From an uncultured Chloroflexia bacterium (lineage in GTDB: Bacteria > Chloroflexota > Anaerolineae > Anaerolineales > Villigracilaceae): a DNA stretch of 64,000 nucleotides. How positions within the stretch are numbered: the stretch's first letter is position 1; each line of letters opens with the position of its first letter. A program made the translations under genes and the position numbers. Where the stretch lies: assembly GCA_963817265.1 (NCBI GenBank), contig CAWFNU010000017.1, forward strand, positions 10,511 through 74,510. The letters run 5' to 3'. Below the pieces are notes generated by a model. That model did not search any database and had not been told where the DNA came from. It was given only the letters and a program-made list of their open reading frames with translations. Shown in pieces: positions 3,777 through 59,535 of the stretch.

Positions 3777-5133
<1,357 letters not shown>

Positions 5134-5537: not shown

Positions 5538-5653
5538 GGGGTAAGGATACTGGAAAAATGCATTTCACACAAGCGAGAGAAACACGATTCAAATGATTGG
5601 GCATTTATGACTGTGCGCTTATAGCAATTATTCCATGACTGTCGGTTGCGAAC

Positions 5654-6697: not shown

Positions 6698-6825
6698 ACT
6701 GGGGGAATATTGATACAAAGATCAAAATTTCTGGAACTTGGTCTTAATCTATTCCATCATTTCTATCTAAACTTGGGTCAAATCCATGTTGGAGTTAAAC
6801 TTCTGTCGAAAAGGATTGGAGTTCT

Positions 6826-8783: not shown

Positions 8784-8908
8784 GTCATCCTCCTTTGATA
8801 TTGATAAGTGTAGCGCTTTTTAACCAAATCTCATAGTTCCCACCTCAACCCGGATAAGAACTGGGTAACACATTAATAAATTAACTTGTACTAAGGTAGA
8901 ATCTGGTT

Positions 8909-9571: not shown

Positions 9572-9621
9572 GAGCAAACATTAAATAAGTTACAATACGC
9601 ATAGTCCCGTAGGAGAACCAG

Positions 9622-10917: not shown

Positions 10918-11007
10918 GCCGGGTGGATATGGAGGTTGGCAGATAGTAGAAGAAAATGGAATTGCGTAATCGTAAAGATTAGTGCATAATAGAGTCAGGA
11001 GTGCGCC

Positions 11008-14000: not shown

Positions 14001-14454
14001 CCGGGTTGAGGATTCTATTCCGGTTTCCGTAACTCTGGCACCGACAAATTCGGTTGAATGGGTACCGGTTGAGGAAATACCTCCTCAGACCCCAGCTCTT
14101 CCAACCGAAGTGACTCCGATCGAACCGGTCCAAGAACCTCCGATCCAGCGTCAGATCCTGGGAGGAACCGGCATGCTTTCTCGTGTTCCCCTCGATGACA
14201 AGGATGCTGAATTTCTTGCGGCTGCCCAGACCGCACTGGATTCCAAGCAAATAAAAGAATCCATGCAAGCCTATTTGAAGCTCATCAAAAAAAATCGCTT
14301 GCTGGATGAGGTCATCCACGATTTGCGTGAAGCGATTTATCGGTTCCCGATCGATGTCAGTATCTGGCAAATGTTAGGAGATGCCTCAATGCGAGCAAAC
14401 CGCCTCCAGGATGCATTGGACGCATATACAAAAGCAGAAGAGCTGCTAAGATAA
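11008..14454 (+). pseudogene. giant TPR protein with a Pro/Glu-rich core carrying W-acidic repeats; reading frame broken twice (~13235 and ~13405)
   Basis: Track ORFs 11008..13245, 13262..13453 and 13423..14454 are in frames 0, 1 and 0 and share the same composition and repeat motif. There are N-terminal TPRs (residues ~20-230) and a C-terminal TPR-like end (SIWQMLGDASMRANRLQDALDAYTKAEELL). The second shift falls in a G6 run. Confidence 0.75.
11950..13925 (+). repeat. array of about 15 short coding repeats (hydrophobic-P-[DE]-W-[LMI]-x) spaced by 25-50 aa of P/E/A-rich linker
   Basis: Motifs seen in the translation: IPDWMQS, MPDWLKSMEP, VPEWLSGL, FPDWLKEMEP, LGWLESL, IPAWLRPD, KPAWLAGA, EAWLKDL, ETWLQGL, PEFWTY, DAWLEGL, PEWIQRS, TSWLNKH, LPDWLKESEP, MPEWLSET. 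Some copies are also similar at the DNA level (cc.gattggtt.aa...atgga.cc). Confidence 0.8.
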
Positions 14455-14547
14455 AATATATCTAATCGATTTCCAGAGAAGTCGTTTTGGAATTGGAAGA
14501 GGAGGGGGCGCATGGGGCGGGTCGGGATATCCGCCATGGTAAAATCA

Positions 14548-14576
14548 GATCTCGAGACCATACTTGTCTCGAGATC
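14548..14576 (+). terminator. perfect 11-bp stem / 7-nt loop hairpin between the TPR gene and ndk (terminator or processing/attenuator stem)
   Basis: gatctcgagac-catactt-gtctcgagatc followed by atttctt. The U-tail is weak and the hairpin sits only ~22 nt before the ndk ATG. Confidence 0.35.
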
Positions 14577-14598
14577 ATTTCTTGAAACGGAGAATAAC

Positions 14599-15053
14599 AT
14601 GGAAAGATCGCTCGTGCTTGTCAAACCCGACGGTGTCCAACGTGGACTGATCGGGGAAGTGATAGCCGTCTGGAACGCCGCGGTTTGATGCTTGTCGCGG
14701 CAAAATTTCTACAGGTCAGCCAGGAACTGGCTGAAACACATTATGCCATTCATAAAGGCAAACCATTTTATGACCTCTTGATCGAATATATTACTTCTGC
14801 ACCGGTCATGGCAATGGTCTGGGATGGACCTAATGCAGTGGCTGCCATCCGCCAGACGATGGGTGCCACCCGTCCTACTGAGGCTGCACCCGGGTCGTTG
14901 CGTCATGATTTTGCCCTGGAGATTGGTCGAAACCTGACCCATGCTTCGGATACGCTGGAAAATAGTGAAAAAGAGGTCGCGTTGTGGTTTAAACCCGATG
15001 AATTGATCGATTGGAAACGCGATACAGACCGGTGGATTTTTGAGAAGAGTTAG
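14599..15053 (+). pseudogene. ndk: nucleoside-diphosphate kinase, one frameshift (~14660)
   Basis: Own translation from the ATG at 14599 gives MERSLVLVKPDGVQRGLIGEVIA, then premature termination. Track ORF 14685..15053 continues it (..LVAAKFLQVSQELAETHYAIHKGKPFYDLLIEYITSAPVMAMVWDGPNAV..RNLTHASD). Restoring one C (gcc-cgt) gives VIARLERRGLMLVAAKF. Confidence 0.9.
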
Positions 15054-15192
15054 GGTTTTTATTCCATTTTATTTTGATTTATTTAATTCCCAATTTACCA
15101 TATTATACACGCTCGAAAAATGGATATCAATATATAATTAAATTAACAAATAGCAACGTATATCCCATCTATCATTACAGAAGGAGTATCTC

Positions 15193-15842
15193 ATGACCGA
15201 AGAATTATTCAAGAAAATGGCACAAAGCGTCCTGGATGGAGATTCTGATGCTGCCACCGCCCTGGCAAAGCAGGCAATTGCTGAGGGGGTTGATCCACTG
15301 GAGGCCATTACCAAAGGTTTTGTGACGGGTGTCAACAAGGTGGGCGAAAGTTTTGCCTGCGGGCAGGCCTTTTTGCCTGAACTGGTGATGGCTGGCGAAG
15401 CCATGAAAGCAGCAGTTTCCACACTGGAACCGGAAATGCAAAAACGGGGGGTTGAGCGCACGATGCTTGGAAAGGTCGTTCTGGCAACTGTTGAAGGGGA
15501 TATTCACGAAATCGGTAAATCGCTGGTTGGAACAATGCTCTCAGCTTCCGGTTTTCAGGTTTATGACCTGGGCGTGGATGTTCCAGCGGCAAGATCATTG
15601 CCAAGGTCCAGGAAGTGGATGCCGATCTTGTCGGCTTGAGCGCACTGTTGACGACCACGATGGTCAAGCAAAAGGAAGTGATCGACGAACTGGATAAGCT
15701 GGGATTGCGCAAGAAGGTCAAAGTGATGGTGGGCGGTGCACCAGTGACCCGCGATTGGGTTCAAAAAATTGAAGCAGACGGATACTCCGAAGACGCAATC
15801 GGGGCAGTCGGGCTGGCAAAACAACTGGTTGGCGCTGCATAA
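15193..15842 (+). pseudogene. cobalamin-binding corrinoid protein (MttC/MtbC/MtgC-like), one frameshift (~15590)
   Basis: AAGGAG RBS. The N-terminal helical cap (B12-binding_2-like) is followed by a B12-binding Rossmann domain with DxHxxG (GDIHEIGK), SxL (SALLTTTM) and GG (VMVGGAP). The gene is split between track ORFs 15193..15639 and 15615..15842. Confidence 0.85.
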
Positions 15843-15862
15843 GCGGACCTGGATGACCTACC

Positions 15863-17314
15863 ATGTCGAAAACGATCAAATCGATCACCAACCCGAAACT
15901 GCGATTGGAAATATTAACCCCGCAGGAAGTCAAAAAAATCCATGATGCCACCCTATGGATCATCGAAAAAGTTGGCGTGCGTTTCCCATCCAAACGCGCT
16001 CTGGATATCTGGGCTGCCCACGGTGCTGAGGTGGATCGCGAGAAAATGATCGTGCGTGCCAAGGCGGAACTGATCGAAAAAGCCTTGAAAACGTGTCCAC
16101 CGGTTTATTCGCTGGCAGCACGTGACCCGCAGCAGGATTTGCCGCTGGATGGAAACCATGTCTTTGTTGGCACGGATGGTTGCGGTGTGGAAGTGATCGA
16201 TATCAACACCGGAGAACGCCGGACTTCCTGCCTGCAAGATGTGCGCGATATTTCCCGCATCGCCGATGCGACCGAGGAAGTGGCTTTCCACTGGGTACCG
16301 GTCTCTGCGCAGGATATGCCTCCCGAAACGCGCGGCCTGCATGAGATCAAGGCCATTTGGGAAAATTCCACCAAGCACGTCCAGACCGAATCCATTTATA
16401 ACGAACGGGAAGCCCGCGCTGCCATTGAAATGGCAGCTCTGATCGCCGGCGGAAAGGACAAATTACGCCAACGCCCGGTCCTTTCACTTGATGCAGTGCT
16501 CCGCTCCTCCGCTCGGACATGATGGCGGCAGCCTGGATGCAGCGCTGGTGGCTGCAGAATACGGTCTTCCCACCGGGTTCATGACCATGGCAGCCAACCT
16601 GACCACCGGTCCAGCCACGCTGGCGGGCAACCTGGCGGTCGGAAATGCGGAGGTGATCGCCGGTACCGCCTTATCCAGCTGGCTTACCCGGGTGCGCCGG
16701 TCTTTTATGCCGCGGCTCAAACCGCCTCCGATCTGCGGACAGGTGCCTATACCGGCGGTGGTCCGGAGGATTTCCTCTACGGAGCAGCCACCAATGTGCT
16801 TTCCGATTTCTATAATATCCCGCTCTCGATGGGTTCGTTTGCCACCGGTGCAAAAGAACCAAACTGGCAGGCCGGCATTGAGAACAGCCTGTCCACGTTC
16901 ATGGCAAGCATTGTCATGTCGGATATGCTTCTGGGTGTGGGATTCCTGCATGGAAGCCGCATCTGGTCGTTTGCTGAGATGATGATGGATTGCGAGATTT
17001 TCTCCATCATCCGCAAGACGATGCAAGGCATTGTCGTGGATGATGAGACCCTGGCGCTCGATACGATTGCTGCCGTTGGTCCGGGGGCAATTTCCTGTCA
17101 CAGAAGCACACTCTCAAGCACATGCGCGAGCTGTTCCTGCCGCAATTCATGGACCGGCGTCCATTTAATGAATGGGAAGCGAAGAAAGACGATGCCCGCG
17201 ATTGGGCACTGGCGAAAGCTCGCAAAACGTTGGAGACACACCAACCTGATCCGCTTGATGAAAAAATCAGCACTGAAATGGCGAAAGATCATTTCATCGC
17301 TGGAGAAAAAATGA
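15863..17314 (+). pseudogene. MttB-superfamily (trimethylamine-methyltransferase-like, non-pyrrolysine) methyltransferase, paralog 1; at least 3 frameshifts
   Basis: Pieces lie in track ORFs 15863..16522, 16488..16982, 16796..17314 and 17122..17541. Stitched, they read ..RPVLSL.MQCSAPPLGHDGGSLDAALVAAEYGLPTGFMTMAANLTTGPATLAGNLAVGNAEVIAGTAL.IQLAYPGAPVFYAAAQTASDLRTGAYTGGGPEDFLYGAATNVLSDFYNIPLSMG..VGPGGNFLSQKHTLKHMRELF.. (~480 aa). One break is a missing G in a G-run (~17093). None of the breaks is an amber codon. Confidence 0.85.
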
Positions 17315-18775
17315 CTGCCCTGCAGCCAAAACTTGAACTCCTGACATATGACTTGATTGCCCGCATCCTGGATGAAGCTTTCCAGTTAATGCAAAAACCA
17401 GGGATTAAAGTCCAATCGTCTGAAGCGCGTGATTTGTTGATTAAGGCCGGGGCGACGGCTGACGGGAGAAGTGGTCAAGATCCCGGAGAAAATTGTTCGC
17501 AAGGCACTGGATACTGTCCCGGCGGAATTCCATCTATATGACCGGAGTGGCAATCCCAAGGTCCATTATGGGGGCAACTCAGTCCACTTTGATCCCGGTT
17601 CATCGGGAGTGCATATTCTCGATCCAGATACGCTGGAGCATAAGACCTCCTATACCGCCGATCTGGTGCGGATGGTCAAGGTGACGGAGATGCTCCCGCA
17701 GTACGACGCCCAGTCCACGGCTATCGTATGTAATGAAGTCCCCAAAGCCATTGGTGATTTATATCGGCTTTATCATTGTCCTGTTGTTTTCGAAAAAACC
17801 GATCGTGACCGGATCGTTTTCCCTGCAAACCCTGGGCACAATGATTGATATGCTGGCAATTTTCTCGGGAGGTCGCCAGTCTCTGGCGGAGAAACCACAG
17901 GCGGTTTTTGATGTATGTCCATCACCTCCACTGATCTGGAGCGATTTTGGTGCTGGAAATCTTATCGAATTGGCCCGCGAAGGGTTCCTGCAGAACTTAT
18001 CTCGATGCCGTTGGCCGGAGCAGCTGCTCCGGTGACCTTGCTGGGCTCGGTGGTTCAGCATGCTGCCGAAAGTTTAAGCGGAATCGCCATCCACCAGCTT
18101 GCCAATCCCGGTGCTCCCATCGTGTGGGGAGGTGCGCCGGCAATATTCGATATGCGCCATGGCACCACTCCGATGGGCGCAATTGAGACAGCCATGATCG
18201 ATGCTGCATATGCACAGGTTGGCAAGTCGCTCAATCTGCCAACCCATGCCTATCTTGGTGCTTCTGACGCCAAGATAGTGGATGCCCAGGCTGGGATTGG
18301 AAAGCGGTATTACTGCCCTGGTTGGAGCGCTGGCTGGGATTAATATGATCTCGGGGGCAGGGATGCTCGATTTCCTGGCCTGTCAAAGCCCGGAAAAACT
18401 GGTGGTGGATGCGGAAGGGATTGCCATGGCCCAGCGTCTGTTGGCCGGGATCGAGGTCCGTACAGAGACGCTGGCAACTGCTCTTTTCGAAGGGATCAAT
18501 TTCAAAGGTGACTTCCTCAAGCAAAAGGTGACTCGTGAGTTATTTTCCAAGGAACAATACCTCCCCTCGGCAGTGATCGACCGGGAATCCAATCGCGGCT
18601 GGCAGGCAGCGGGAAGTCTCGATACCTTTGCCCGTGCAAAAATTCGAGTTGCTGAACTGATCGCATGCTTATCATCGTCCAGATTATCCTCCAGAACATG
18701 AACTCAAATTGCGGACGATGGTGGAGAACTCAGGCTCACAAAGCTGGCATGCAGGATCTCCCCCGATTGGAATAA
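17311..18775 (+). pseudogene. MttB-superfamily methyltransferase, paralog 2; at least 5 frameshifts
   Basis: Pieces lie in track ORFs 17122..17541 (from M64, MTALQPKLELLTYDLIARILDEAFQLM), 17471..17848, 17733..18035, 17915..18343 and 18282..18701. Stitched, they read ..CPSPPLIWSDFGAGNLIELAREG.PAELISMPLAGAAAPVTLLGSVVQHAAESLSGIAIHQLANPGAPIVWGGAPAIFDMRHGTTPMG..DAQAG.ESGITALVGALAGINMISGAGML.. The end at ~18775 comes from own translation (..TQAHKAGMQDLPRLE*). Confidence 0.8.
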
Positions 18776-18780
18776 TCATC

Positions 18781-18826
18781 ATGCGTCATCAGAACGAATG
18801 GCAGTTGTTCTGGTGGCGCATTTTTT
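18781..18826 (+). terminator. rho-independent terminator closing the corrinoid/MttB1/MttB2 unit
   Basis: 15-bp stem (atgcgtcatcagaac / gttctggtggcgcat, with two G-U pairs), a 10-nt loop, then a T6 run. Confidence 0.75.
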
Positions 18827-18874
18827 GCTAATATGTATATACAGATGACCCGTTTTCTAACCTAGGAGGAAGGG

Positions 18875-20576
18875 ATGAATAAAAAATCAATTCTGTACGC
18901 TTGTTTTTCTGTCATGGTTGCAGCCAGTATGCTCCTCAGCGGTTGTGGAGGCGCTACTGCAACTCCCGTTGTGCCGGGGAACACCCCACAGGTTCCTCAG
19001 CCTTCCCAGACAGCAGTCCCGGAAAAGAAGGTTGCTACGCTCATTTTCACCCAGGAATTTGACAACCTTGCCCCTCTGTACAGCAGCATGTGGTTCGTCT
19101 GGACAACCTGGCAAATGTTTGATCACTGGGCATGGGAATTCGATTCCAACAACGAACCTTTCCCACGTCCTGGTGACTGAAATTCCCAGCATTGAAAACG
19201 GCGGAGTCAGCGCGGACGGAACCGTGATCACCATGCATTTGCGAAATGATATTAAATGGTCGGATAACGTCCCATTAACTGCCGAGGATTTCATCTTTAC
19301 CTGGCAGATGGCGGTCAGCCCTCAGAACACAGTTGCCACTACCTATCCATATGACATGATTTCAACCGTGGAAGCCCCTGATCCTCAAACAGTGGTAGTT
19401 ACCTTCTCCGAACCGTTTGCCCCCTGGTTGGCGAACCTTTGGCATGGGATCCTGCCTGCCCATATCCTGAGCCCTGTTTACGAGGCGGACGGAACCATAG
19501 ACAATGCTAAATGGATAAAACAACCGACTGTCGGCTGTGGCCCATATAATTTTGCGGAATGGGAGTCGGGTAGTTATGCCCGTTTCGTGCGTAATGATAA
19601 TTATTGGGGCACTCCAGCCAAGATCGATGAGATCTTCATCCGCTTCGTTCCCGATGACGCCTCACAGACAGCGGCGTTAAAAGCCGGGGATGCCGATTTG
19701 GGAACCTTTATTTCGTATAGTGATGTACCCGCGCTTCAAGATGAAGGTCTGAAGATTGTCATCGAGCCAAGTGGTTACAACGAGTTTATGTTTTTCACGC
19801 TCAATGCCCAGAAGAATAACCCCGGATTGCAGGACGTCAGGGTGCGGAAAGCGATTGCTCTCGCAATTAATCGTGATGGGATCAATCGCGATTTACATTT
19901 TAGTTTAACCAAAACACCTGCTAGTTTTTGGGATGCATTGCCCTATTATAACAACCCTCCCCTTACACCCTACCCATATGATCCAGCACAGGCGAAAAGT
20001 TTGCTGGACGAAGCTGGTTGGGTAGATAGTAATGGGGACGGTGTTCGCGAAAAGGATGGCGTAAAGCTTGAGATCTCGCATGCTACTACCATCCGGGAAG
20101 ATCGGCAGGATGTCCAGGCTGTCATGCAGCAGAACCTGGCTGACGTCGGGATCAAACTGGATGTGAATCCTGTGGATGATACCCTGTTTTTTGCGAGCTA
20201 TGCTGATAATGGTCCAGCTGCCAGGGGCGATTACGACATCCAGGAGTGGTCTGATGGTCCCCTGTTCCCGGATCCGGATATTTATTACTGGTTGTGCGAC
20301 CAGATCCCTACGGATGCAAACCCCACCGGGGAAAACTGGTTCTATATTTGCGATGAACAACTTGACGCCCTGATCAAGCAGCAGTCCACGCAGGTTGATC
20401 CAGTGGCAAGGCAGGCCACAATTTCGCAGATCAACCAACTCTTCTATGATAAAGTCTATATTATCGGCATGTGGCAGGATCCGGATGTTTATGCGCTCGG
20501 TTCACGTCTGCAAAATGTAAAATTCTCCGGCGTGACTATGTTCTACAATATTGCCGAGTGGGATCTCGTTCCATAA
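18875..20576 (+). pseudogene. ABC transporter substrate-binding lipoprotein, family 5 (Dpp/Opp/nickel/opine type), one frameshift (~19165)
   Basis: GGAGG RBS and a lipobox signal (MNKKSILYACFSVMVAASMLLSGC). Track ORF 18875..19180 supplies the N-terminus and the real frame continues in 18918..20576 (..HVLVTEIPSIENGGVSADGTVITMHLRNDIKWSD..GCGPYNFAEWESGSYARFVRNDNYWG..). Confidence 0.85.
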
Positions 20577-20597
20577 CCAATCCAATGCATAGAAATT

Positions 20598-20627
20598 ATG
20601 AGGAGCCGGATATCACCGGCTCCTCAT
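20598..20627 (+). terminator. strong hairpin immediately after the SBP gene (partial terminator / mRNA-stabilising stem)
   Basis: A perfect 12-bp stem atgaggagccgg / ccggctcctcat with a 6-nt loop, followed by ttc. Such stems are commonly found between SBP and permease genes. Confidence 0.5.
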
Positions 20628-20661
20628 TTCACCTCCCAATGTTTTACTTGGAAGGCGCAAT

Positions 20662-21693
20662 ATGACTCGCTATATCATCAAACGGCTACTCCAGGGCATC
20701 CCTCTGCTATTTATCATCAGTGTGGTTTTATTTGCTTTAATGATGAGCACGGGGGATCCTGTCGCCACCATGGGAGGACGGCGGGTTACTCGTGCTGACG
20801 ATTATGAGCGGCTTAAGCGGCAATTGGGGCTTGATAAACCAATTTATGTTCAGTATGTCTACTGGCTGGTAGGCAATACTTGGGCCAAAACCGACCTTAA
20901 TGGAGATGGAGTGGCTGAAACACCAGGCACTCGTTTGGGCATCCTGCGCGGAGATTTCGGGAACTCATTGGTCGACCGCATGCCAGTCATGCAGGTGATT
21001 GGTGCACGGATTCCGAACACGCTAATCTTGATGTTGTCTGGTGAATTGATCGTCATCCTGGGTGCTTTGGTCGTTGGGGTTTACTCTGCATTAAGGCAGT
21101 ATTCTGTATTGGACCACGTATTGACAGCGTTATCATTCATCGGGTATTCTATGCCGATCTTTTTCATTGCTTTGATTCTCATGTTCATATTTGCTGTGCA
21201 ATTTAAAAAATGGGATCTACCTTATCTCCCAACGGTCGGTATGTTCGATCCTCAGGTCGGCAAAACATTCTTGCAGGTGATTTATCACATGATCCTTCCT
21301 GTGATCAGCATGTCGGTGGTCAGTCTGGCTTCCTACAGCCGCTACATTCGCAGTACTATGCTCGATGTGCTAAATCAGGATTATATCCGCACAGCTAGGT
21401 CCAAGGGTTTACCGCGCCGTTCGGTTGTATTTGTGCACGCCCTTAAGAACGCTTCCCTTCCCATTGCCACCATTGTTGGTTTGGATCTACCCTTCCTGCT
21501 GGGAGGGGCGGTCGTAACCGAGCGTATTTTTGCCTGGCCGGGCATGGGACGACTTTTCCTGGATCATGTCAACCGGGCTGATACACCGGTTGTCATGGGT
21601 AGCCTCATGCTTGTCGCAGTAGCCGTGATAGTATTCCAGATCATCACCGATATTGTTTATGCCTGGCTGGATCCGCGCATCCGGTACGATTGA
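20662..21693 (+). CDS. ABC transporter permease (DppB/OppB-like)
   Basis: 343 aa with 6 TM helices. BPD-transporter EAA loop (YIRTARSKGLPRRSVVFVHALKNA) and the N-terminal MTRYIIKRLLQ motif typical of DppB/OppB. Confidence 0.9.
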   Translation: MTRYIIKRLLQGIPLLFIISVVLFALMMSTGDPVATMGGRRVTRADDYERLKRQLGLDKPIYVQYVYWLVGNTWAKTDLNGDGVAETPGTRLGILRGDFGNSLVDRMPVMQVIGARIPNTLILMLSGELIVILGALVVGVYSALRQYSVLDHVLTALSFIGYSMPIFFIALILMFIFAVQFKKWDLPYLPTVGMFDPQVGKTFLQVIYHMILPVISMSVVSLASYSRYIRSTMLDVLNQDYIRTARSKGLPRRSVVFVHALKNASLPIATIVGLDLPFLLGGAVVTERIFAWPGMGRLFLDHVNRADTPVVMGSLMLVAVAVIVFQIITDIVYAWLDPRIRYD

Positions 21694-21706
21694 TTAAAAC
21701 GGCATT

Positions 21707-22654
21707 ATGGAAACAACCCCCTCACAAATTGCTATCCTGACCCCGGATGATCTGGAAACCCCTCCGCTCAGTCTTGGCCAACTGGCGTGGCGGCGGTTCA
21801 AGCGTCATATACCTGCCATCTTTGGCTTGGTCGTGCTGATCATGCTCGTACTGTATGCCCTGGGGGGCACTTTGTTTATCTCCGAGAAATATGCCAATTA
21901 TAATGACCCCAGTTTGCGTCTGCAGGCTCCCTCCACGATCCATCCCTTTGGCACCGATTCTATCGGACGGGATGTTCTGGCTCGTACAATTTATGGGGGT
22001 CAGATCTCGTTGCTCATCGGCTTGACGGCGGTTATAGTTGAAACATTGTTGGGCATCCTGGTGGGAGCCTTGGCTGGATATTACGGTGGCTTGGTGGATA
22101 GCATCCTGATGCGCATCACCGAAGCCATGCTGAATATTCCTGAAATCTTCCTGTTGATTGTGATGGCTAAGTATTTCGGTGGCAAGATCCCTGAAGTGGA
22201 CCTCTTCGGTCGCACCTTTAGTGGAAGTGTGGTCGTCATTGTTCTTATTATTGGGCTTACCTCTTGGATGTATCTTGCACGGATTGTTCGCGCTCAGTTC
22301 CTCTCGCTGAAGGAGAATGAGTTCGTACTGGCGGCTCGGGCGACAGGTACTCGCAATATTGACATTATCTTTCGCCATATCTTGCCAAATAGCATCGCCC
22401 CCATAGTGGTCTCTGCCACCTTGGGTGTTGCCAATGCCATCCTTGCCGAGGCATATATCAGTTTCTTGGGTCTGGGCGTACAACCGCCCACCGCTACCTG
22501 GGGGAATATGCTCGACGGTGCAAATAACTATCTTGACACAGCTCCCTGGCTGTGGTTTTTCCCTGGCTTATTGATATTATTGACAGTTCTTAGTATAAAT
22601 TTCTTGGGCGATGGTTTGCGTGACGCTCTCGACCCCCGCAGCCGGACGGTCTGA
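21707..22654 (+). CDS. ABC transporter permease (DppC/OppC-like)
   Basis: 315 aa. OppC N-terminal pattern (LAWRRFKRH), PFGTDSIGRDVLAR and the EAA loop (FVLAARATGTRNIDIIFRHILPN). Confidence 0.9.
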   Translation: METTPSQIAILTPDDLETPPLSLGQLAWRRFKRHIPAIFGLVVLIMLVLYALGGTLFISEKYANYNDPSLRLQAPSTIHPFGTDSIGRDVLARTIYGGQISLLIGLTAVIVETLLGILVGALAGYYGGLVDSILMRITEAMLNIPEIFLLIVMAKYFGGKIPEVDLFGRTFSGSVVVIVLIIGLTSWMYLARIVRAQFLSLKENEFVLAARATGTRNIDIIFRHILPNSIAPIVVSATLGVANAILAEAYISFLGLGVQPPTATWGNMLDGANNYLDTAPWLWFFPGLLILLTVLSINFLGDGLRDALDPRSRTV

Positions 22655-22658
22655 ACGA

Positions 22659-23648
22659 ATGGCGACTCTTCTAGACGTTAAAGACCTAAGGACACTCTTC
22701 CATACACCCGAAGGGACCGTGTATGCAGTCAATGGGATTTCCTTCCATGTGGACGAGGGGGAAACCCTGGCTGTGGTAGGGGAGAGTGGTTGCGGGAAAT
22801 CGGTAAGCATGCTATCAGTCCTTCAATTGATCCTGGTTCCTCCTGGAGAGATTGCTGGTGGCGTGGTAATGTACCGTGGTCACGATCTCCTTAAAAATTC
22901 CGAGCGCGAGATGGAAGACATCCGCGGTCAGGAAATCGCAATGATTTTCCAGGATCCGATGACATCCCTAAATCCAGTATTGACGATCGGCAGGCAGATC
23001 ACGGAATCATTGCGGGTTCATAAGGGGATGGACCAGAAAGATGCTGATGCCAGGGCTGTGGAATTGCTGGAATTGGTCGGCATTTCAGATCCCTCCCGTT
23101 GCTTGGGCGATTACCCTCACCAGTTCTCCGGCGGGATGCGCCAGCGGGTGATGATAGCCATGGCGCTTTCATGCAACCCAAGCTTGTTGATCGCTGACGA
23201 GCCGACTACCGCGCTGGATGTAACCATTCAAGCTCAGATCGTTGAGCTGGTCACCAGGATCCGCGAAAAGGTCGGCATGGCGGTCATCTGGATTACGCAT
23301 GACCTGGGTGTGGTAGCCGGGATTGCCGACCGGGTAATGGTGATGTATGCCGGGTTTATTGTTGAGGAAGCCGGTGTGAACGCATTATACGAAAACCCAT
23401 GCCACCCCTATACCAGCGCATTATTGGGGGCTCTTCCGCGCGTCGATCGTCGTCGCGATCGGAGGCTTAAATCGATTCCCGGTGCGCCGCCCAGCCTTCT
23501 GGTGGAACCGCATGGCTGTCCATTTTCAACTCGCTGTGAATATGTCATTGAGCGGTGCAAAACCGAAAACCCATCCTTGACCTCGGTCGGAAAAAACAAC
23601 CACAACATTGCTTGTTGGGTTGACATCCATACTGGAGCACCGCGATGA
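22659..23648 (+). CDS. ABC transporter ATP-binding protein (DppD/OppD-like)
   Basis: The track ORF starts at 22611, but the ATG at 22659 ([10 protein letters not shown]) follows the stop of the permease. Walker A GESGCGKS, signature FSGGMRQR, Walker [13 protein letters not shown], and the oligopeptide C-terminal domain (HPYT..C.F..RC). Confidence 0.9.
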
Positions 23649-24630
23649 GTGGTACTAAACCACTGGTCGTGGTCGAAAACCTGACCAAGCACTTCCCGGT
23701 GACTCCGCGGCATTGTCTTTCAGCACAAGGTGGGGGCAGTCCGTGCAGTGGATGGAATTTCATTCTCCATCGAAAAGGGAGAGACTCTCGGTCTGGTGGG
23801 TGAAAGTGGATGTGGTAAGACCACTGCCGGACGGACGTTGCTGGGACTTTATCCGGCAACATCAGGGGTGGTCACGATTGACGGGCATGATGTTCGTTCT
23901 GCCAGGGGCGGGGAAATGCTCGTCATCCGCAGAAAAGCGCAGATGATTTTTCAGGATCCATACGCTTCGCTAAACCCGCGTTGGACGGTCCATTCCATCG
24001 TAAGCGAACCCCTGCGTGTGCATCATTTATTTAAAACCGAGGCGGAGCGCGTTGAACGGGTTCAGGAGTTGATGGGCTTGGTTGGTTTAAGCGGGCGATC
24101 TAATAAACCGGTTTCCTCATGAATTCTCAGGGGGACAGCGTCAGCGCATCGGCATAGCTCGCGCCCTGGCTTCTGACCCCCGGTTTATTGTATGCGACGA
24201 ACCGATCTCGGCCTTGGATGTTTCCATCCAGGCGCAGGTTGTCAACTTGCTTGAAGATCTGCAGGATCGTCTTGGGCTGACCTATTTATTTATCGCTCAC
24301 GATCTCAGCATGGTTCGCCATATTTGCGACCGGGTGGCAGTCATGTACTTGGGAATAATGGCTGAATTAGGCGATCGGAACGAGCTGTACGAGCATCCGC
24401 TCCACCCATATACGAGGGCGCTTCTTTCTGCAGTTCCTGTCCCTGATCCAAGGAAAGATCACGCTCGACAGCGAATTATCCTGGCTGGGGATGTCCCTAG
24501 CCCGATCAACCCACCCTCCGGTTGCCGCTTTCACCCGCGTTGTCCGCTCGTGTCAGAGCTCTGCAGTCACGCGATTCCACAGTGGCGGCTGGCCGCGCCC
24601 AATCACTGGGTCGCCTGCCATAACGTCTGA
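23645..24630 (+). pseudogene. ABC transporter ATP-binding protein (DppF/OppF-like), two frameshifts (~23705, ~24095)
   Basis: The ATG overlaps the oppD-like stop (ATGA). Own translation gives [20 protein letters not shown]... Track ORF 23730..24122 continues it ([31 protein letters not shown]..), then 24214..24630 and its upstream frame ([44 protein letters not shown]). Confidence 0.88.
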
Positions 24631-24647
24631 AGGAAAGATGAAGGGCC

Positions 24648-26432
24648 ATGATTGACCTAGGGGTTTTATTGCGCGTTCCGTGTGTTGAGGTGGAGATGGG
24701 CTTCGATGTTTCGCCTGGCGGCGAAAACGTAGCCTTTTCTTGGAATCCGGGAGGCGAATGGGAGATATTCGAGACCGAATTAATAGGTAAAGCAAATCCC
24801 CGTCCAATTTCACGTGGACCGGGAGGAAAATTTCATCCGCGCTACTCGCCCGATGGTCGTTATTTGGCCTACACAGTTGATTTTGACGGTAGTGAAGCCT
24901 ATCATCTCGTCGTCCATGATCTGGGTACTGGGGAAGAGCGCGACCTCACTCCTCACAACAATTGTTCATTGCAAGCTGATTTCTCCTGGTCTCCGGATGG
25001 AAAATTCCTGGCTTTTATTTCTGATCAATCCGGCCAGTTTGATACTTACATAATTCCCTCTGGAGGGGGAGAGGCCCAACTCGTGCTGGATGCTGGCTAC
25101 CCGGCTTGGAAAGTGCGTTGGTCTCCCGACGGCTCTAGGTTGGCCGTCACGGTCGAAGCAGGGGGCATAGATTTTGGGACCTATATCGTCAAGGCTGATG
25201 ATGGCAGCGAAGTGTGCAGGATTTCCGACGCCAATGGGCCGATCGATGCCGGTCAGACTTCATGGTCTCCTGACGGTTCAAAACTGGCTTTTACTTCGGA
25301 TGTTTATGGCTTTAACAATATCGGCATTTATGATTTATCCACCCACATGATAAACTGGCTGACCGATGGGGGAGGGGAAAAGCAATTTCCTGTCTGGTCG
25401 CCGGATGGTTCACAGCTCGCATACGTTTTCAATCTGAGTACTATTTCTTGGTTGGTGGTCCAAAAACTTGGGGGACCTCCGCAGATGAATCAAGTTGAAC
25501 CAGGAGTCCATTACCATCCTCACTTCACCCCCGAAGGGAAACATGTCATCTTTGTTTTCGACAATCCATGCCACCCGGATGATTTATGGTCTTTTTCACT
25601 GGAAGATCGGTCTTTTTCCCAAATAACTCATTCTCTGCCCCATGAGTTGGTTGATGTCTCATTTGTCATGCCACAGGAGATTACTTATCCGGGGTTGGAT
25701 GGTACCCCCGTCCCTGGGTTGCTTTTCAAGCCGGATGGAGGAAAACCTGGTCCCGCAGCAATCCTTATCCATGGTGGGCCGGATTGGTTTTTTGAGATGA
25801 CTTGGTACCCCCTGATGGCACACATGGCGTCGCGTGGCTGGGTCGTGCTTGTACCGAATTACCGCGGCTCCACCGGCTATGGACGTGCCTGGCAGGAAGC
25901 CAGTCGTTTCGATTTCGGTGGTGTTGACAACGATGACATCGCTGCTGGGGCTCATTATCTCCTGCAGAACGGTTTGGCTGATCCGGGACGGATCGGGATT
26001 ACTGGTCGTAGTCACGGTGGATACCTCACCATGACCTGCTTGACGAAATACCCGCATCTTTGGGCGGTGGGATCCGCGGTTGTCCCTTTCATTAATTGGT
26101 TCACCAATCATAAATATATTCGCCCGGATCTTCAGCATTGGGATTATGAGAATTTTGGCAACCCGGAAGATGACCACGATTTGTGGGTCGAACGGTCACC
26201 CTATTTTTTTCTGGATAAAATTTCTGCTCCTGTTCAGTTGATCGCAGGCAGGCAGGACCAGCGCTGTCCGGTTACTGACTCCATTGAAGCTCATGCGCTC
26301 CTCCAGGAAATGGGGAAGTCGGTCGAGCTGGTGGTTTACGAAGACGAAGGGCATACCTTTTTGAAATTGGAAAATATCTTGGATTCAGAGCATCGTCGTG
26401 TGGAATTCCTGGCGAAATATTTGGAGAAGTAA
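24648..26432 (+). CDS. S9-family serine peptidase (prolyl oligopeptidase / acylaminoacyl-peptidase type) with N-terminal beta-propeller
   Basis: Repeated propeller blades (SP/SWSPDG), a catalytic GxSxGG (GRSHGGY), and downstream D (GRQDQRCP) and H (EDEGHTF). No signal peptide is evident. Confidence 0.85.
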   Translation: MIDLGVLLRVPCVEVEMGFDVSPGGENVAFSWNPGGEWEIFETELIGKANPRPISRGPGGKFHPRYSPDGRYLAYTVDFDGSEAYHLVVHDLGTGEERDLTPHNNCSLQADFSWSPDGKFLAFISDQSGQFDTYIIPSGGGEAQLVLDAGYPAWKVRWSPDGSRLAVTVEAGGIDFGTYIVKADDGSEVCRISDANGPIDAGQTSWSPDGSKLAFTSDVYGFNNIGIYDLSTHMINWLTDGGGEKQFPVWSPDGSQLAYVFNLSTISWLVVQKLGGPPQMNQVEPGVHYHPHFTPEGKHVIFVFDNPCHPDDLWSFSLEDRSFSQITHSLPHELVDVSFVMPQEITYPGLDGTPVPGLLFKPDGGKPGPAAILIHGGPDWFFEMTWYPLMAHMASRGWVVLVPNYRGSTGYGRAWQEASRFDFGGVDNDDIAAGAHYLLQNGLADPGRIGITGRSHGGYLTMTCLTKYPHLWAVGSAVVPFINWFTNHKYIRPDLQHWDYENFGNPEDDHDLWVERSPYFFLDKISAPVQLIAGRQDQRCPVTDSIEAHALLQEMGKSVELVVYEDEGHTFLKLENILDSEHRRVEFLAKYLEK

Positions 26433-26467
26433 TAGAGGCTGGTGCCGTTGAATGTTGGAGAAAATCG

Positions 26468-27881
26468 ATGATCCATCTTTCTGTATTTGACGAAATTGAA
26501 GTCGAAGCCATTCATCAGGCAAGCCTGCATATCCTCTGGGAGACTGGGGTGGTATTGACCGAACCGCAGAGTTTGAGTCTCCTGACGGATGCGGGAGCCA
26601 GGATAAAAGATTCGCGTCTCTGTATTCCTCCTGATTTGGTGGAAAAATGCATCTCTCAATCGGGTAGGAAGACGATCATCCGCGGGCGAGGTGGGGCGGT
26701 TAAAACTCTTGGTGACGGAAACCTGTATTTCCACAACCTGGGAGGCGCGCCTCAGGTATTTGACTCGCAGTTTGGAACGCGTCGACTTGCAGTTGTCCAG
26801 GACGTGCGGGATGCGACTCGATTGCTGGATGCGCTTGAGAATTGTCATACCGTCACTCCATTCTTCACGCCGACTGAAGTTCCAGGGGGGTTAATGTCAT
26901 TGGCAATGTACCGCCATGCATTGCCATTTACCATGAAACCACTTCAGGGCCCGGGTGTGCAATTGGCGGCCGAAGTCCGATTCGCGGTAAAAATGGCAGA
27001 AGTGATTGGTTCTCCGGCAGAAACCTTGACTTTATCACTTTCTCCGGTCAGCCCACTTACTATTCCTGAACATGAGGCAGTTGCGATTATGGAAATTGCC
27101 CGCCTTGGGATCGCGTTTGCACCGCTACCCTGTCCAACCGCGGGCACAACAGCACCGTTCTCGATTGCTGGAGCCATAACCCAGCAAAACGCTGAGATTT
27201 TGGCTTCCCTGGTGTTGGCTGAGCTTGTTCACCCGGGCTTGCCGATCATTTATTGCGGACGGCTGGCAATGATGGAGCCTCGAACCGGGTTATCAGTCTG
27301 GGGTGGGGTGGAAATGGGATTGGCTTCCGCTGGCACAGTGCAAATGGGACATCGTTACGGGTTGCCAGTCAACGTCTATGGTTTTTCAACGAATGCGCAT
27401 AGCATAGATGCCCAGGACGGTTTTGAACGGGCGTTGAATGCGGCCATTCCTGCCCTGGCAGGAGCAGATGAATTATCCGGAATCGGGGAAATGGAGGCCG
27501 GGGTGATGGGTTCGTTTGCACAGATGGTCGCAGATAACGAATTTGCAGGCAGCATTTCCCGGCTCCGGAAAGGGATTGCAGCAGACGCGGATGCACTGGC
27601 TGTGGAAGTGGTTGCTGCATGCTATGAACTCCACCCGTAATTACCTGGGCCAGAAACACACGATGAAATATCTAAAGTCAGGCGAAGTTTTCCTGACGAA
27701 ACTTGCGGAACGCGGTTCTTGGGAAGGGTGGGAAAAAACTGGACGGGTGGGATTGGTTGAACGGGCAACCATTGAAGCGCAGCGCATTTTACGTGAACAT
27801 CAAGTCCCCCCGCTCGAGTTTGCTCAGGAACGTGAATTGGATGCACTGATGGTGGCTGCTGGGCAGGAATTATTAAAATAG
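26468..27881 (+). pseudogene. MttB-superfamily methyltransferase, divergent paralog 3, one frameshift (~27620)
   Basis: Track ORF 26468..27640 (..LSLSPVSPLTIPEHEAVAIMEIARLGIAFAPLPCPTAGTTAPFSIAGAITQQNAEILASLVLAELVHPGLPIIYCG..) continues in 27516..27881 (..NYLGQKHTMKYLKSGEVFL..). Total about 471 aa. No in-frame TAG. Confidence 0.75.
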
Positions 27882-27924
27882 GTCCTCACAAGACTATTTT
27901 TGGATCAGGAAAGTTAGGTGAAAA

Positions 27925-29103
27925 ATGCTAGAAAAAGCGCGTGCAATGCAGGATGAATTAACCGTATGGCGGCGGGATTTTCACATGCACCCGGAACTCG
28001 GATTCAAGGAAACGCAAACCTCTGCCAAAGTAGCCGAAATCTTGGAAAAGTTAGGATATCGCCTCAAGCGTGGTGTCGGGCGGACCGGTGTGGTGGCAGA
28101 GTTGGGAAATGGTAAGCCTCTTGTCGCCATTCGTGCTGACATGGATGCGCTGCCGCTCCAGGAAACCAACCAGGTGCCCTATGCGTCACAGAATCCAGGG
28201 GTAATGCATGCTTGTGGGCATGACGGACACATGGCGATGGGGCTTGGTGCCGCGGCGTTACTGAGCAAGGAAAAATTTAATGGAACAGTCAGGTTTCTGT
28301 TCCAACCTTCAGAAGAGGTGGGAGATCAAGATGGCTTGAGTGGTGCAGCGCGCATGATCCAGGATGGTGCTATGCAAGGTGTGGAATTTATTATTGCCTT
28401 GCATGTTGAACCTGGTACCCGTGCTGGAGCTATCCGTATCGGGTCCGGACCTGCTTCCGGTGGAGTCGATTCTTGGTTTGGGGAGATCATTGGCAAGGGA
28501 GGCCATGGCGCCCACCCCCACCAGACCATAGACCCTTTCCATATAGCCTCTCATGTAATCTTGGCGATTAATGGGATTATTTCGCGCCGCGTTGATCCTT
28601 TTGATCCTGCGGTCGTGAGCATTGGTTCTCTTCATGGTGGATTTACGGATAATGTCATTCCGGAGCGGGTAAAATTAACTGGTACGCTCCGTTACACGGA
28701 AAAACGGGTCCAGGAACTACTCCATGCAGAGATCCGACGTGCCTTTGAAATATCCCGCCCCTTGGGAGGTGATTACGACCTAAAATTCGAGATTGGTACT
28801 CCCCCCATGATCAATTCTGTGGAAGCTTCCGACCTGGTTGCAGCGGTTGCAGTTGACCTGCTAGGTAGGGAAAATGTCCTTTCCTGGAAAAATGAATTGG
28901 GTGCAGAGGATTTTGGCAATTTTATGGAACTTGCCCCGGGTGCCATGTTTACCCTGGGAACCGGCAGTGATAAATTCCATTGCCTGCTGCATAATCCGGA
29001 TTTCGACTTGGATGAAAGTTGTCTCCCTGTTGGCGCGGCCATTCTTGCAGAAACAGCTTTAAGATTCCTGAAAAAACGGGAAGAAAATCGCATCAGGGAC
29101 TAA
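27925..29103 (+). CDS. M20D-family amidohydrolase (N-acyl-amino-acid / hippurate hydrolase type)
   Basis: FHMHPELGFKE, ADMDALP, MHACGHDGH and FQPSEE, with a dimerisation-lid domain. 392 aa. Confidence 0.85.
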   Translation: MLEKARAMQDELTVWRRDFHMHPELGFKETQTSAKVAEILEKLGYRLKRGVGRTGVVAELGNGKPLVAIRADMDALPLQETNQVPYASQNPGVMHACGHDGHMAMGLGAAALLSKEKFNGTVRFLFQPSEEVGDQDGLSGAARMIQDGAMQGVEFIIALHVEPGTRAGAIRIGSGPASGGVDSWFGEIIGKGGHGAHPHQTIDPFHIASHVILAINGIISRRVDPFDPAVVSIGSLHGGFTDNVIPERVKLTGTLRYTEKRVQELLHAEIRRAFEISRPLGGDYDLKFEIGTPPMINSVEASDLVAAVAVDLLGRENVLSWKNELGAEDFGNFMELAPGAMFTLGTGSDKFHCLLHNPDFDLDESCLPVGAAILAETALRFLKKREENRIRD

Positions 29104-29166
29104 TTATAAAAAAAATTAACAATATTGATCGCTTTATCCCTTCGATAACCATCCATAGGAGTTCTT

Positions 29167-30039
29167 ATGCACACAATATTAAGATCTGCTACCAGAGAAG
29201 TCATCATTGGAATTGACCGTCCTTTCGTCATGATTGGAGAAAAGATCAACCCTACTGGGCGGAAGAAGCTCGCCGCCGCATTATCTGAGGGCAACTTGGA
29301 TGTTGCCCGTCAATTGGCGGAGAGTCAGGTAGCCTGGGGAGCAGATGTGCTGGATATTAATGTTGGTGTCCCTGGGTTGGATGAAGTCGCTGTGGTACGG
29401 AAATTATTGGAAATGCTGGCTCCGATTGTGGATGTACCCTTCTGCCTGGATTCTGCCAATCCATTGGTGCTGGCGGCGGGCTTGGCTGCCGTTCCTGGCA
29501 AGCCGCTGGTCAACTCGGTTAGCGGTGAAGAGAAAAAGCTGGAAACGGTCCTTCCCCTCGTAAAAGACCGCGGCGCTGCTGTCATTGGATTGACCATGGA
29601 TGACAACGGCATACCCAAAACTCCCGAGGAACGCCTGGCTGTGGCAGAGAAGATTATCGAGCGGGCGGCAAAGATGGGTATCCCAGCCGAAGATATTATT
29701 ATCGATCCGCTGGTTCTGACGGTCGGGTCGGATAGTAAGGCCGCCATGGTGACGCTCCAGACCGTGGAATTACTGCGTAAGGAATTCGGAGTAAATATCA
29801 ACTTGGGAGCCAGCAATGTCTCCTTTGGCTTACCCGATCGTCCGACCATTAACCAGGCCTTCCTGACCCTCGCCATTCAACTGGGCGCAACCTGCTCGAT
29901 CACCGACCCGTCAAAACTGGGCGCAACAGTAAAGGCTGCTGACATGTTGCTTGGAAGGGATGACAACTCTATACATTACCTTAAATATTTCCGCGCTGCC
30001 GAGAAGCTGAGGGCCGCCGAAGCAGAAAAAACAGCATAA
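29167..30039 (+). CDS. pterin-binding methyltetrahydrofolate:corrinoid methyltransferase (MtgA/MtrH/AcsE-like MT2 component)
   Basis: DHPS-like TIM barrel with IGEKINPTG, ADVLDINVG, LDSANP, VNSVSGEE and GASNVSFGLPDR. Confidence 0.8.
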   Translation: MHTILRSATREVIIGIDRPFVMIGEKINPTGRKKLAAALSEGNLDVARQLAESQVAWGADVLDINVGVPGLDEVAVVRKLLEMLAPIVDVPFCLDSANPLVLAAGLAAVPGKPLVNSVSGEEKKLETVLPLVKDRGAAVIGLTMDDNGIPKTPEERLAVAEKIIERAAKMGIPAEDIIIDPLVLTVGSDSKAAMVTLQTVELLRKEFGVNINLGASNVSFGLPDRPTINQAFLTLAIQLGATCSITDPSKLGATVKAADMLLGRDDNSIHYLKYFRAAEKLRAAEAEKTA

Positions 30040-30060
30040 AGAAATCGAAAGAAAATTAAA

Positions 30061-30105
30061 AATCCTCTTCGGTCAATTTTGAACTGAAGGGGATTTTGAT
30101 TTTAC
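30061..30105. terminator. bidirectional terminator between the methyltransferase operon (+) and the LysE gene (-)
   Basis: 10-bp stem aatcctcttc / gaaggggatt (one G-U pair) with a 15-nt loop, flanked by an A-run upstream and ttgatttt downstream. Confidence 0.55.
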
Positions 30106-31986: not shown

Positions 31987-32951
<965 letters not shown>

Positions 32952-33098: not shown

Positions 33099-34038
<940 letters not shown>

Positions 34039-59357: not shown

Positions 59358-59535
59358 TTACCAATTCCCATTATTAAGTTGGAATATATAGTTATCTTGT
59401 TGGTGATTGTTATGGAAACAGAGTTTCCGTCTTCAACTCTCTGAATTACATATTTTTGTGTTGGCTGAATATTACCACTCAAACAATAATTCTTTGAGAA
59501 AAACAGGAAGCCAATTTATTTTTGATATTTTGGTA

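Follow-up and report, generated by a model that had tools for sequence, protein, structure and literature searches.

The 64,000-nt stretch of DNA analysed here (the window), from an uncultured Chloroflexia bacterium, carries at positions 15193-30105 a cluster of twelve genes on the + strand, arranged in two units, in which a corrinoid methyl-transfer system is combined with peptide-type hydrolases and a peptide-type importer. The cluster encodes three methyltransferases of the MttB superfamily (MttB1, MttB2 and MttB3), a corrinoid protein, a pterin-binding methyltransferase (MT2), an S9 serine peptidase, an M20D amidohydrolase, a solute-binding protein (SBP), two permeases and two ATPases. All of these components are identifiable and, once single-base indels are repaired, intact. 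The gene for MttB3 lies between the genes for the two hydrolases, and the residues at the substrate pockets of the three paralogs deviate from those of all characterised MttB enzymes. The most likely function, for which we find the case evenly balanced, is catabolic: the cluster, which is conserved in the order Anaerolineales, would harvest methyl groups from a methylated amine in peptide or amide linkage. This reading is built from sequence comparisons. A preliminary description of the stretch, made from its letters and open reading frames (ORFs), had listed the genes, and Pfam, NCBIfam and our own reading of the ORFs bear it out in gene content, coordinates, strand and domain calls (Table 1).

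The three MttB paralogs and their binding pockets

Cluster genes are split by 15 single-base indels, which were located by frame-aware protein-to-DNA alignment with intact orthologues. MttB1 has four of them and MttB2 six. The others fall in the genes for the corrinoid protein (one, near 15590), the SBP (one, at 19166), the second ATPase (two insertions, at 23705 and 24099) and MttB3 (one insertion, at 27619/27620). Repair of the frames leaves every gene full length with no in-frame stops, and the repaired proteins are 84-95% identical to their orthologues. Repaired MttB3 is 99% identical to an intact 470-amino acid protein (P0001), and the first ATPase aligns over its full length to a 329-amino acid orthologue in locus L002.

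The Pfam family MTTB (PF06253) matches all three paralogs, MttB3 at 3e-58 through a 390-amino acid fragment, and the fragments of MttB1 and MttB2 jointly span profile positions 20-480. The best match in the PDB is MtgB (9yce, 251 bits) for MttB1 and MttB (7xcl, 199 bits) for MttB2. Identity among the paralogs is only 22-26%, and to MtgB it is 26-32%. An AlphaFold model of MttB3 computed from 71 diverse sequences has a pLDDT of 97 and a pTM of 0.94, and replaced a discarded model from 16 close orthologues with a pLDDT of 50.7. Foldseek superposes it on 9yce, 2qne and 7xcl (MtgB and MttB) with TM scores of 0.92-0.94, the value for MtgB being 0.92, and this superposition makes membership in the superfamily secure. 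The assignment of the three ORFs to the MttB superfamily in the preliminary description therefore holds by profile for all of them and, through the predicted structure, by fold for MttB3. The pyrrolysine (Pyl)-containing MttB type, represented by the TIGR02369 equivalog, is ruled out. The repaired MttB1, MttB2 and MttB3 score 434, 371 and 325 bits against its cut-off of 525, and the absence of in-frame stops after repair means that there is no UAG codon for Pyl. At the position of Pyl334, located in 7xcl, MttB1 and MttB2 both have Ala and MttB3 has Ser, in agreement with the earlier classification of the paralogs as non-Pyl enzymes.

In the glycine betaine site of MtgB, for which a structure appeared in 2026, Y97 and F356 make cation-pi interactions and R312 and H348 contact the carboxylate (PMC13080624). 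Every member of known function has this R312, which forms a salt bridge to the acid group of the substrate, always an acidic quaternary amine (PMC13080624). In our alignment the residues at the positions of MtgB Y97/R312/H348/F356 are G/S/L/S in MttB1, S/H/S/L in MttB2 and G/N/S/G in MttB3, and each pattern is invariant within the aligned orthologues of that paralog. The equivalent of R312 is thus Ser, His or Asn; the comparison with MtpB, MtcB, MtyB and MthB at this position was made through the published description (PMC13080624). With these binding residues missing, we rejected glycine betaine, proline betaine, carnitine, gamma-butyrobetaine and phosphocholine as likely substrates; use of a known substrate, glycine betaine included, is not predicted for any of the three paralogs. 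The earlier suggestion of a different substrate is supported in that all three lack the residues that bind glycine betaine or other acidic quaternary amines, which argues against free glycine betaine.

A scan of 1.84 billion cluster representatives placed the MttB3 orthologues in a single cluster at 50% identity, with the next relatives at 46%, 42% and 40% and a continuum thereafter. In total, 5,445 clusters at 50% identity match MttB3 at E values up to 0.001. All 150 listed representatives score at least 199 bits against MttB3, compared to 155-168 bits for MtgB. The pocket pattern G-[N/D]-x-S-G is found in most of the nearest 130 full-length representatives, and Arg occupies the R312 position in nine of the nearest 130 representatives of 50% clusters in the MttB3 clade.

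Partner proteins and their conservation beside MttB3

To define the neighbourhood of MttB3 in relatives, one genome was taken per GTDB species with an intact MttB3 orthologue. This gave 80 loci with MttB3 identities of 62-100%. Neighbours were counted by mapping of reference proteins and by clustering of all ORFs, using only the loci informative on the side concerned. The loci are labelled Chloroflexota, mostly Anaerolineales or Anaerolineae and including Ca. Villigracilis and Brevefilum, with the exception of two short contigs. The core that they have in common runs in the order GntR/FCD regulator, corrinoid protein, MttB1, MttB2, S9, MttB3, M20D and pterin MT2. Among informative loci, S9 directly precedes MttB3 in 53 of 64 (median gap 36 nt) and M20 directly follows it in 54 of 69 (median gap 44 nt). 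More than 50 species-level genomes preserve the S9-MttB3-M20 arrangement, some of them with an MttB3 identity as low as 62%. Synteny of the flanks (LysE, thioredoxin-reductase, Mdh and citrate synthase) survives in about 12 of the 80 loci. Since it is lost in most, conservation of the core goes beyond mere shared ancestry of gene order, and the neighbourhood that the preliminary description had proposed to look for in relatives is indeed present, with differing flanks. The two contigs with labels outside Chloroflexota, L051 (1.5 kb, Chthonomonas) and L075 (4.1 kb, Gemmatimonadetes), carry MttB3 orthologues that are 66-68% identical; because both contigs are very short, mis-binning is a likelier explanation than horizontal transfer.

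The S9 peptidase combines a PD40 beta-propeller with an alpha/beta-hydrolase domain, a Ser-Asp-His triad and an HGGP motif, the architecture of the S9C family and of acylamino-acid-releasing enzymes (AAREs). A PDB search returned AAREs as its nearest solved structures (8wt1, 5l8s, 1ve6, 4hxe, 5yzm and 7px8), of which 8wt1 is counted among AARE structures in the literature (PMC12485367). These nearest solved relatives suggest that the peptidase is AARE-like. The motifs HGGP, GRSHGG and EGH and the Asp of GRQDQRCP are kept in at least 97% of 55 orthologues. The M20 protein scores 352 bits against TIGR01891 (cut-off 154), which places it in M20D, and 340 bits against the CpsA-like equivalog, below the 500 required. 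Its PDB matches are ILL2, YxeP and N-acyl-Gln aminoacylase. MHACGHD, PSEE and other conserved motifs, which we take to be metal-ligand sites, are kept in 61 orthologues. Signal-peptide-like N-termini are absent from both hydrolases, and our reading of the sequences agrees with the earlier one on this point. Look-ups of the exact sequences of the S9 and M20 proteins of the window returned no record.

The corrinoid protein, 216 amino acids after repair, matches B12-binding_2 (1e-20) and B12-binding in Pfam and scores 228 bits against TIGR02370 (cut-off 215), and its DxHxxG motif is present as GDIHEIG. These matches make it a member of that corrinoid protein family. MT2 scores 291 bits against PRK07535 (cut-off 259) and belongs to the pterin-binding TIM-barrel family. 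A RamA/RACo homologue was not found in the window by tblastn or by Pfam searches of large ORFs, as the preliminary description had reported, and tblastn with Anaerolineales RamA-like, GntR/FCD and Met_synt_B12-like proteins found no copy there. Among the related loci, 18 have a RACo/RamA activase (Fer2, Raco_middle and RACo_C_ter domains) within 10 kb of the cluster. Ten encode a small protein with a weak Met_synt_B12 match, which adjoins the activase in nine of them, and 22 have a GntR/FCD regulator upstream of the corrinoid gene. The presence of regulator and activase in relatives fits an inducible, functional catabolic system.

The SBP matches SBP_bac_5 at 5e-84 and has a lipoprotein signal that ends in LSGC. 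Together with OppB/C-type permeases and two oligo_HPY ATPases, it makes up what is by its domains a putative Dpp/Opp-type importer. Solved structures match the SBP with 121 bits at best, the nearest being AppA, peptide-binding proteins and NikA, and it is also distant kin of DppA. It reaches no NCBIfam equivalog cut-off (for Opp4A, 175 bits compared to 650), and solved relatives in family 5 include binders of nickel, opines, haem and sugars. In the 50 loci with the stretch from MttB2 to MttB3 in view, a Dpp-type module lies between MttB2 and S9 in 21 (the clade of the window), downstream of M20 in four and upstream of the regulator in one; it is absent from 24. In 12 further loci with MttB2 out of view, the module is directly upstream of S9 or MttB3. 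Across loci the family-5 SBP importer is present as distinct sequence subfamilies. The importer is therefore not a fixed part of the system, contrary to what the preliminary description had implied. A palindromic hairpin between the genes for the SBP and the first permease may determine how much SBP is made relative to the membrane components.

Loci that depart from the common arrangement, and distant relatives of MttB3, provide what we regard as the most telling sequence evidence for a functional link. A second S9 (25% identical), tightly joined to MttB3, stands in for M20 in five loci, and in L052 an M3 oligoendopeptidase F takes the position of S9. Other variant neighbours are a third S9, a beta-lactamase/S12-type protein, an Ntn (AAT/C45) protein and a DUF2817/M14-like protein. 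Loci with variant hydrolases always carry a different family-5 SBP importer. Nine loci encode a secreted lipoprotein of about 360 amino acids that has a Peptidase_S9-type alpha/beta-hydrolase domain and no propeller (Table 1). Its gene mostly comes just after that for the pterin methyltransferase, and several kb further on in L038 and L073. These loci are without the Dpp-type importer, except L073, where MttB2 is out of view. The lipoprotein may pre-process the substrate outside the cell. Among more distant members of the clade, P0126 (42% identical to MttB3) is preceded by SBP_bac_5 and two Opp-type permeases and P0133 (37%) by an OppC permease. Beside MttB3 and its 37-42% relatives, non-homologous peptidases and three different family-5 SBP importers recur. 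The cluster of P0132 (38%), on an unrelated contig (L091, positions 5108-16617; ENA ERZ27247099, k141_770000; GC content 0.54), contains three paralogs of the MttB3 clade, given as 34-37% identical to MttB3. A PocR/AraC regulator and two corrinoid proteins are encoded with them, as are an M19 dipeptidase, an alanine racemase and an SSF symporter. It is a second, differently built pairing of three MttB proteins with a dipeptidase.

Two other loci have additional transporters. L037 encodes a PhnD-type (Phosphonate-bd) ABC transporter downstream of the cluster (11057-15534), from which trimethylated aminoethylphosphonate could, speculatively, be named as a candidate quaternary amine. Directly downstream of the MttB3 cluster, L021 (13890-21413) encodes a fourth, unrelated MttB with a PotD-like ABC importer, a DUF1638 protein and, adjoining the latter, a RamA/RACo activase.

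The preliminary description had placed the methyltransferases, the corrinoid protein and MT2 in one transcription unit with the importer and the hydrolases, while also noting a strong terminator behind MttB2. The terminator was found and the single unit was not. The stop codon of MttB1 overlaps the start codon of MttB2 (ATGA at 17311-17314), and a terminator scan detected a hairpin at 18781-18821 followed by a T-run. An alignment of intergenic sequences shows that nine relatives keep this terminator and that 5 of its 14 base pairs have undergone compensatory changes. Because it is conserved, the system is not a single transcription unit in the clade of the window. Directly after the T-run, TGCTAATAT at 18826-18834 resembles an extended -10 element and is kept as GCTAnTAT in L003, L006, L007, L010 and L020. 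It could be the promoter of the importer-hydrolase unit. The unit comprising importer, S9, MttB3, M20 and MT2 would then have its own start in this clade, and the corrinoid protein that it needs would be supplied from unit 1 upstream. In several genomes without the importer module, MttB2 and S9 overlap or are 2 nt apart. A hairpin between MttB2 and S9, GTAGGTCACGTCTAAGACGTGACCTAC, with a 13-bp stem and no T-run, is conserved in the importer-less loci L028, L036, L038 and L043. At the end of unit 2, the terminator proposed earlier at 30061 can be seen by eye as an imperfect hairpin with a T-rich stretch; the scan made no call there.

Proposed pathway and alternative explanations

In the pathway that we consider, a small peptide-like compound would enter through the Dpp/Opp-type ABC importer, or by another uptake route in genomes that have no importer in the cluster. 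The AARE-like S9 peptidase and M20D would release or trim the methylated moiety in the cytoplasm. MttB3, jointly with or alongside MttB1 and MttB2, would take a methyl group from the methylammonium compound thus set free and load it onto the Co(I) corrinoid protein, and the pterin-binding enzyme would hand it to tetrahydrofolate (THF). Reactivation of the corrinoid would fall to a RamA/RACo-type activase encoded elsewhere in the genome. The class of substrate, the order of hydrolysis and demethylation, the roles of MttB1 and MttB2 and the division of labour among the paralogs are those that we infer from the genes. The betainylated peptide, N-acyl amino acid or opine-like compound named in the preliminary description would be candidates for the substrate, and its proposal that the three paralogs cover different methylated products would be one conceivable division.

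Each part of this pathway has a known counterpart. The MtgB/MtgC/MtgA system of Desulfitobacterium hafniense, which transfers methyl from glycine betaine to THF, likewise combines a non-Pyl methyltransferase of the MttB type (MT1) with a B12 corrinoid protein and a pterin MT2 that methylates THF, and MtgB shares the fold of MttB3. It differs in that the window has three MT1 paralogs of low identity to MtgB, with all four contact residues replaced, together with peptide hydrolases and a peptide-type importer. MtcB, MtyB and MtpB of Eubacterium limosum (carnitine, gamma-butyrobetaine and proline betaine) are also non-Pyl MttB demethylases that feed THF, but they keep the R312-type Arg (PMC13080624), and MtcB and MtyB lie beside MFS transporters (PMC8604678), whereas the window paralogs lack this Arg and lie beside peptidases and a Dpp-type ABC importer. 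The general statement in the preliminary description that known systems are paired with BCCT or ProU transporters is thus partly right, the MFS neighbours of MtcB and MtyB being the part that does not fit. That an MttB cluster can encode enzymes that prepare its substrate has a precedent in the choline system of E. limosum (MthB/MthC/MthA with MthK), where the kinase MthK converts an environmental compound to the true MT1 substrate, phosphocholine (PMC12155760). There the accessory enzyme activates by phosphorylation; the S9 peptidase and M20D would imply hydrolytic release.

For the two hydrolases, a lead by analogy is the well-established joint action of acylpeptide hydrolase (APEH) and aminoacylase on N-blocked peptides, a pairing that Perrier and co-workers reportedly described in 2005 (a paper in the reference list of PMC3898105). 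The APEH/AARE (S9C) and aminoacylase (M20) pathway, known from eukaryotes and archaea, where it processes N-acetylated peptides, resembles the cluster in pairing an S9C-like peptidase with an M20 N-acyl-amino-acid amidohydrolase. It has no link to corrinoid methyl transfer, and mammalian ACY1 is an M20A enzyme, unlike the M20D enzyme of the window. The importer corresponds to Dpp/Opp/App systems in its family-5 SBP lipoprotein, OppB/C-type permeases and two oligo_HPY ATPases, and differs from them in an SBP that stays below the equivalog cut-offs.

Several observations weigh against the coupling of hydrolysis to demethylation. S9 and M20D are broad families, and the AARE-like label comes from matches of 100-160 bits. 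The pocket comparisons rest on alignments at 22-31% identity. The window has neither RamA nor the regulator. In its clade, the terminator splits corrinoid protein, MttB1 and MttB2 from the importer, the hydrolases and MttB3, and the Dpp-type importer is missing from 24 of the 50 loci described above. In addition, three of seven sampled distant members of the clade have no peptide-related neighbours and a fourth is on a contig that is too short (P0123, P0125, P0128 and P0130).

Some of these points would be explained if the two halves of the cluster served separate substrates. Importer, S9 and M20 would then be ordinary genes with which a protein-fermenting organism scavenges peptides, while MttB, corrinoid protein and MT2 demethylated free small amines imported otherwise, with shared regulation for the use of dead biomass. 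The frequent absence of the importer, the split by the terminator, the generic nature of the hydrolase families and the other transporters that adjoin the cluster (PhnD-type in L037, PotD-like with a fourth MttB in L021) all favour such an arrangement. We nevertheless consider it rather unlikely, as more than 50 genomes with differing flanks have MttB3 enclosed by S9 and M20 at distances of about 40 nt, non-homologous peptidases have repeatedly been recruited beside genes of the MttB3 clade in unrelated contexts, and the pocket residues match no characterised enzyme for free quaternary amines. The same pocket bears on the order of the steps. The residues G/N/S/G of MttB3 are all small and include no carboxylate-binding Arg, which fits a bulkier substrate without a free carboxylate beside the nitrogen (PMC13080624). 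MttB3 might accordingly demethylate a group that is still on the peptide or N-acyl compound, such as an N-terminal trimethylated residue or a trimethyl-lysine peptide, leaving S9 and M20D to degrade the unblocked product; the location of its gene between both hydrolase genes is compatible with this order. The characterised non-Pyl MttB enzymes, however, all use small free molecules (PMC13080624, PMC12155760), and we regard demethylation ahead of hydrolysis as doubtful.

The indels raise the question of whether MttB1, MttB2 and other frameshifted genes are pseudogenes. Their distribution gives some reason to ask: unit 1 (3.6 kb) holds 11 of the 15, ten of them within the 2.9 kb of MttB1 and MttB2, and is denser in them than unit 2. 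Decay is nonetheless very improbable, and the indels are most likely assembly errors, judging by the sequence. No nonsense substitutions are left after repair and identity to orthologues is normal. Housekeeping genes of the window, for NDK, a thioredoxin-reductase-like protein, malate dehydrogenase (Mdh) and citrate synthase, are likewise split over two or three frames (Table 1), and further long-contig metagenome-assembled genomes of the same series show similar fragmentation of different genes. Over window positions 21050-28222, the JGI short-read contig L087 matches at 96.9% identity, and its genes are all intact. The window has an extra base relative to it at 23705, 24099 and 27619, and the predicted frameshift sites are 23705, 24099 and 27620. 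The frames that the preliminary description had flagged for correction were restored by alignment, and L087 confirms these three sites. The whole window comes from an indel-rich assembly, probably made from long reads only. A biosynthetic role, in which methyl-THF would be used through the corrinoid protein and MttB to N-methylate a peptide or an amino acid, is conceivable in that corrinoid methyl transfers are reversible in principle. The combination of an importer, two hydrolases and a GntR/FCD regulator is a catabolic pattern, though. No peptide-synthesis genes were seen among the neighbours of the cluster, and LysE is the only exporter there. Running the system in reverse is therefore extremely improbable in our estimation.

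Going beyond the catabolic reading, we tentatively propose, with less confidence, that the cluster represents an undescribed methylotrophy of Anaerolineales, with a peptide- or amide-bound methylammonium compound as methyl donor. The MttB3 clade, with its G-[N/D]-x-S-G pocket and no carboxylate-binding Arg, would form a new substrate class, and S9, M20D and the Dpp importer would form the delivery module. Candidate donors are N-terminally trimethylated residues, betaine-capped peptides, trimethyl-lysine or -ornithine conjugates from dead biomass, and N-acyl amino-acid betaines. Full-text literature searches found no published account of MttB genes wired to peptidases or to Opp/Dpp importers, and the statement in the preliminary description that no such system had been described stands to that extent. 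The chemistry of corrinoid methyl transfer is known; the wiring to hydrolases and importer and the pocket signature are what is new here, and the substrate class is probably new as well.

To our knowledge only six substrates have been assigned in the MttB superfamily, all of them small free amines, and the superfamily has thousands of members, as the number of clusters that match MttB3 illustrates. Anaerolineales are abundant in soils, sediments, activated sludge and digesters. Genes of the mttB type in Chloroflexota and Anaerolineae have routinely been tallied as trimethylamine methyltransferase and used to infer methylamine and betaine cycling (PMC11264602). The cluster points instead to a different, peptide-derived pool of methyl donors that Anaerolineales would use. 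If this is correct, anaerobic one-carbon metabolism would gain a substrate class, and a widespread mis-annotation would be put right. With its defined set of seven to twelve genes, the cluster is directly accessible to experiments in vitro.

Feature coordinates and further observations

Table 1. Features of the cluster and related elements. Positions refer to the window unless a locus is named.
Feature	Position	Strand	Basis or content
Unit 1	15193-18775	+	corrinoid protein, MttB1, MttB2
Unit 2	18875-30039	+	nine proteins: SBP, two permeases, two ATPases, S9, MttB3, M20D, MT2
Corrinoid (cobalamin-binding) protein, MtgC/MttC-like	15193..15842	+	B12-binding_2, B12-binding, TIGR02370
MttB1, non-Pyl MttB-family methyltransferase, 482 aa repaired	15863..17314	+	PF06253 fragments
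MttB2, non-Pyl MttB-family methyltransferase, 486 aa repaired	17311..18775	+	PF06253 fragments
Intrinsic terminator/attenuator hairpin, 17-bp stem and T-run	18781..18826	+	terminator scan
Family-5 solute-binding lipoprotein (Dpp/Opp/Nik-type)	18875..20576	+	SBP_bac_5, lipobox LSGC
Perfect 12-bp palindromic hairpin in the gap between SBP and first permease	20598..20627	.	terminator scan
DppB/OppB-like ABC permease	20662..21693	+	BPD_transp_1 6e-43, BPD_transp_1_N
DppC/OppC-like ABC permease	21707..22654	+	OppC_N, BPD_transp_1
DppD/OppD-like ABC ATPase (ORF open from 22611)	22659..23648	+	ABC_tran, oligo_HPY
DppF/OppF-like ABC ATPase, 327 aa repaired	23645..24630	+	ABC_tran, oligo_HPY fragments
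Cytoplasmic S9 serine peptidase with PD40 beta-propeller	24648..26432	+	Peptidase_S9 7e-48, PD40
MttB3, non-Pyl MttB-family methyltransferase, 470 aa	26468..27881	+	PF06253 3e-58
Cytoplasmic M20D amidohydrolase (N-acyl-amino-acid amidohydrolase or carboxypeptidase type)	27925..29103	+	Peptidase_M20, M20_dimer
Pterin-binding methyl-corrinoid:tetrahydrofolate methyltransferase (MtgA/MeTr-type, MT2)	29167..30039	+	Pterin_bind 5e-31
Imperfect hairpin, then T-rich stretch, between convergent MT2 and LysE genes	30061..30105	.	by eye
NDK, split	14600-15053		
Thioredoxin-reductase-like, split	32002-32948		
Mdh, split	33099-34035		
Citrate synthase, split	34089-35389		
Secreted S9-like lipoprotein	e.g. 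L076 13638-14717		loci L028, L038, L040, L069, L070, L073, L076, L081, L082

No riboswitch, cobalamin riboswitches included, and no tRNA was detected in the window with Rfam gathering thresholds and ARAGORN. Directly downstream of MT2 lies the convergent LysE gene. Long ORFs without a Pfam match are found at 295-2925 (-, 876 amino acids), 59407-61437 (+, 676 amino acids) and 30866-31666 (-, 266 amino acids). The last of these adjoins LysE, and in L001 the same position is also filled by an ORF of 266 amino acids. The part of the window from about 40000 to 64000 has a GC content of 0.41-0.49, compared to about 0.51 in the left two-thirds, and encodes assorted hydrolases, an APH-type kinase, multidrug-type ABC exporters, a MarR regulator, Nramp and VIT1.

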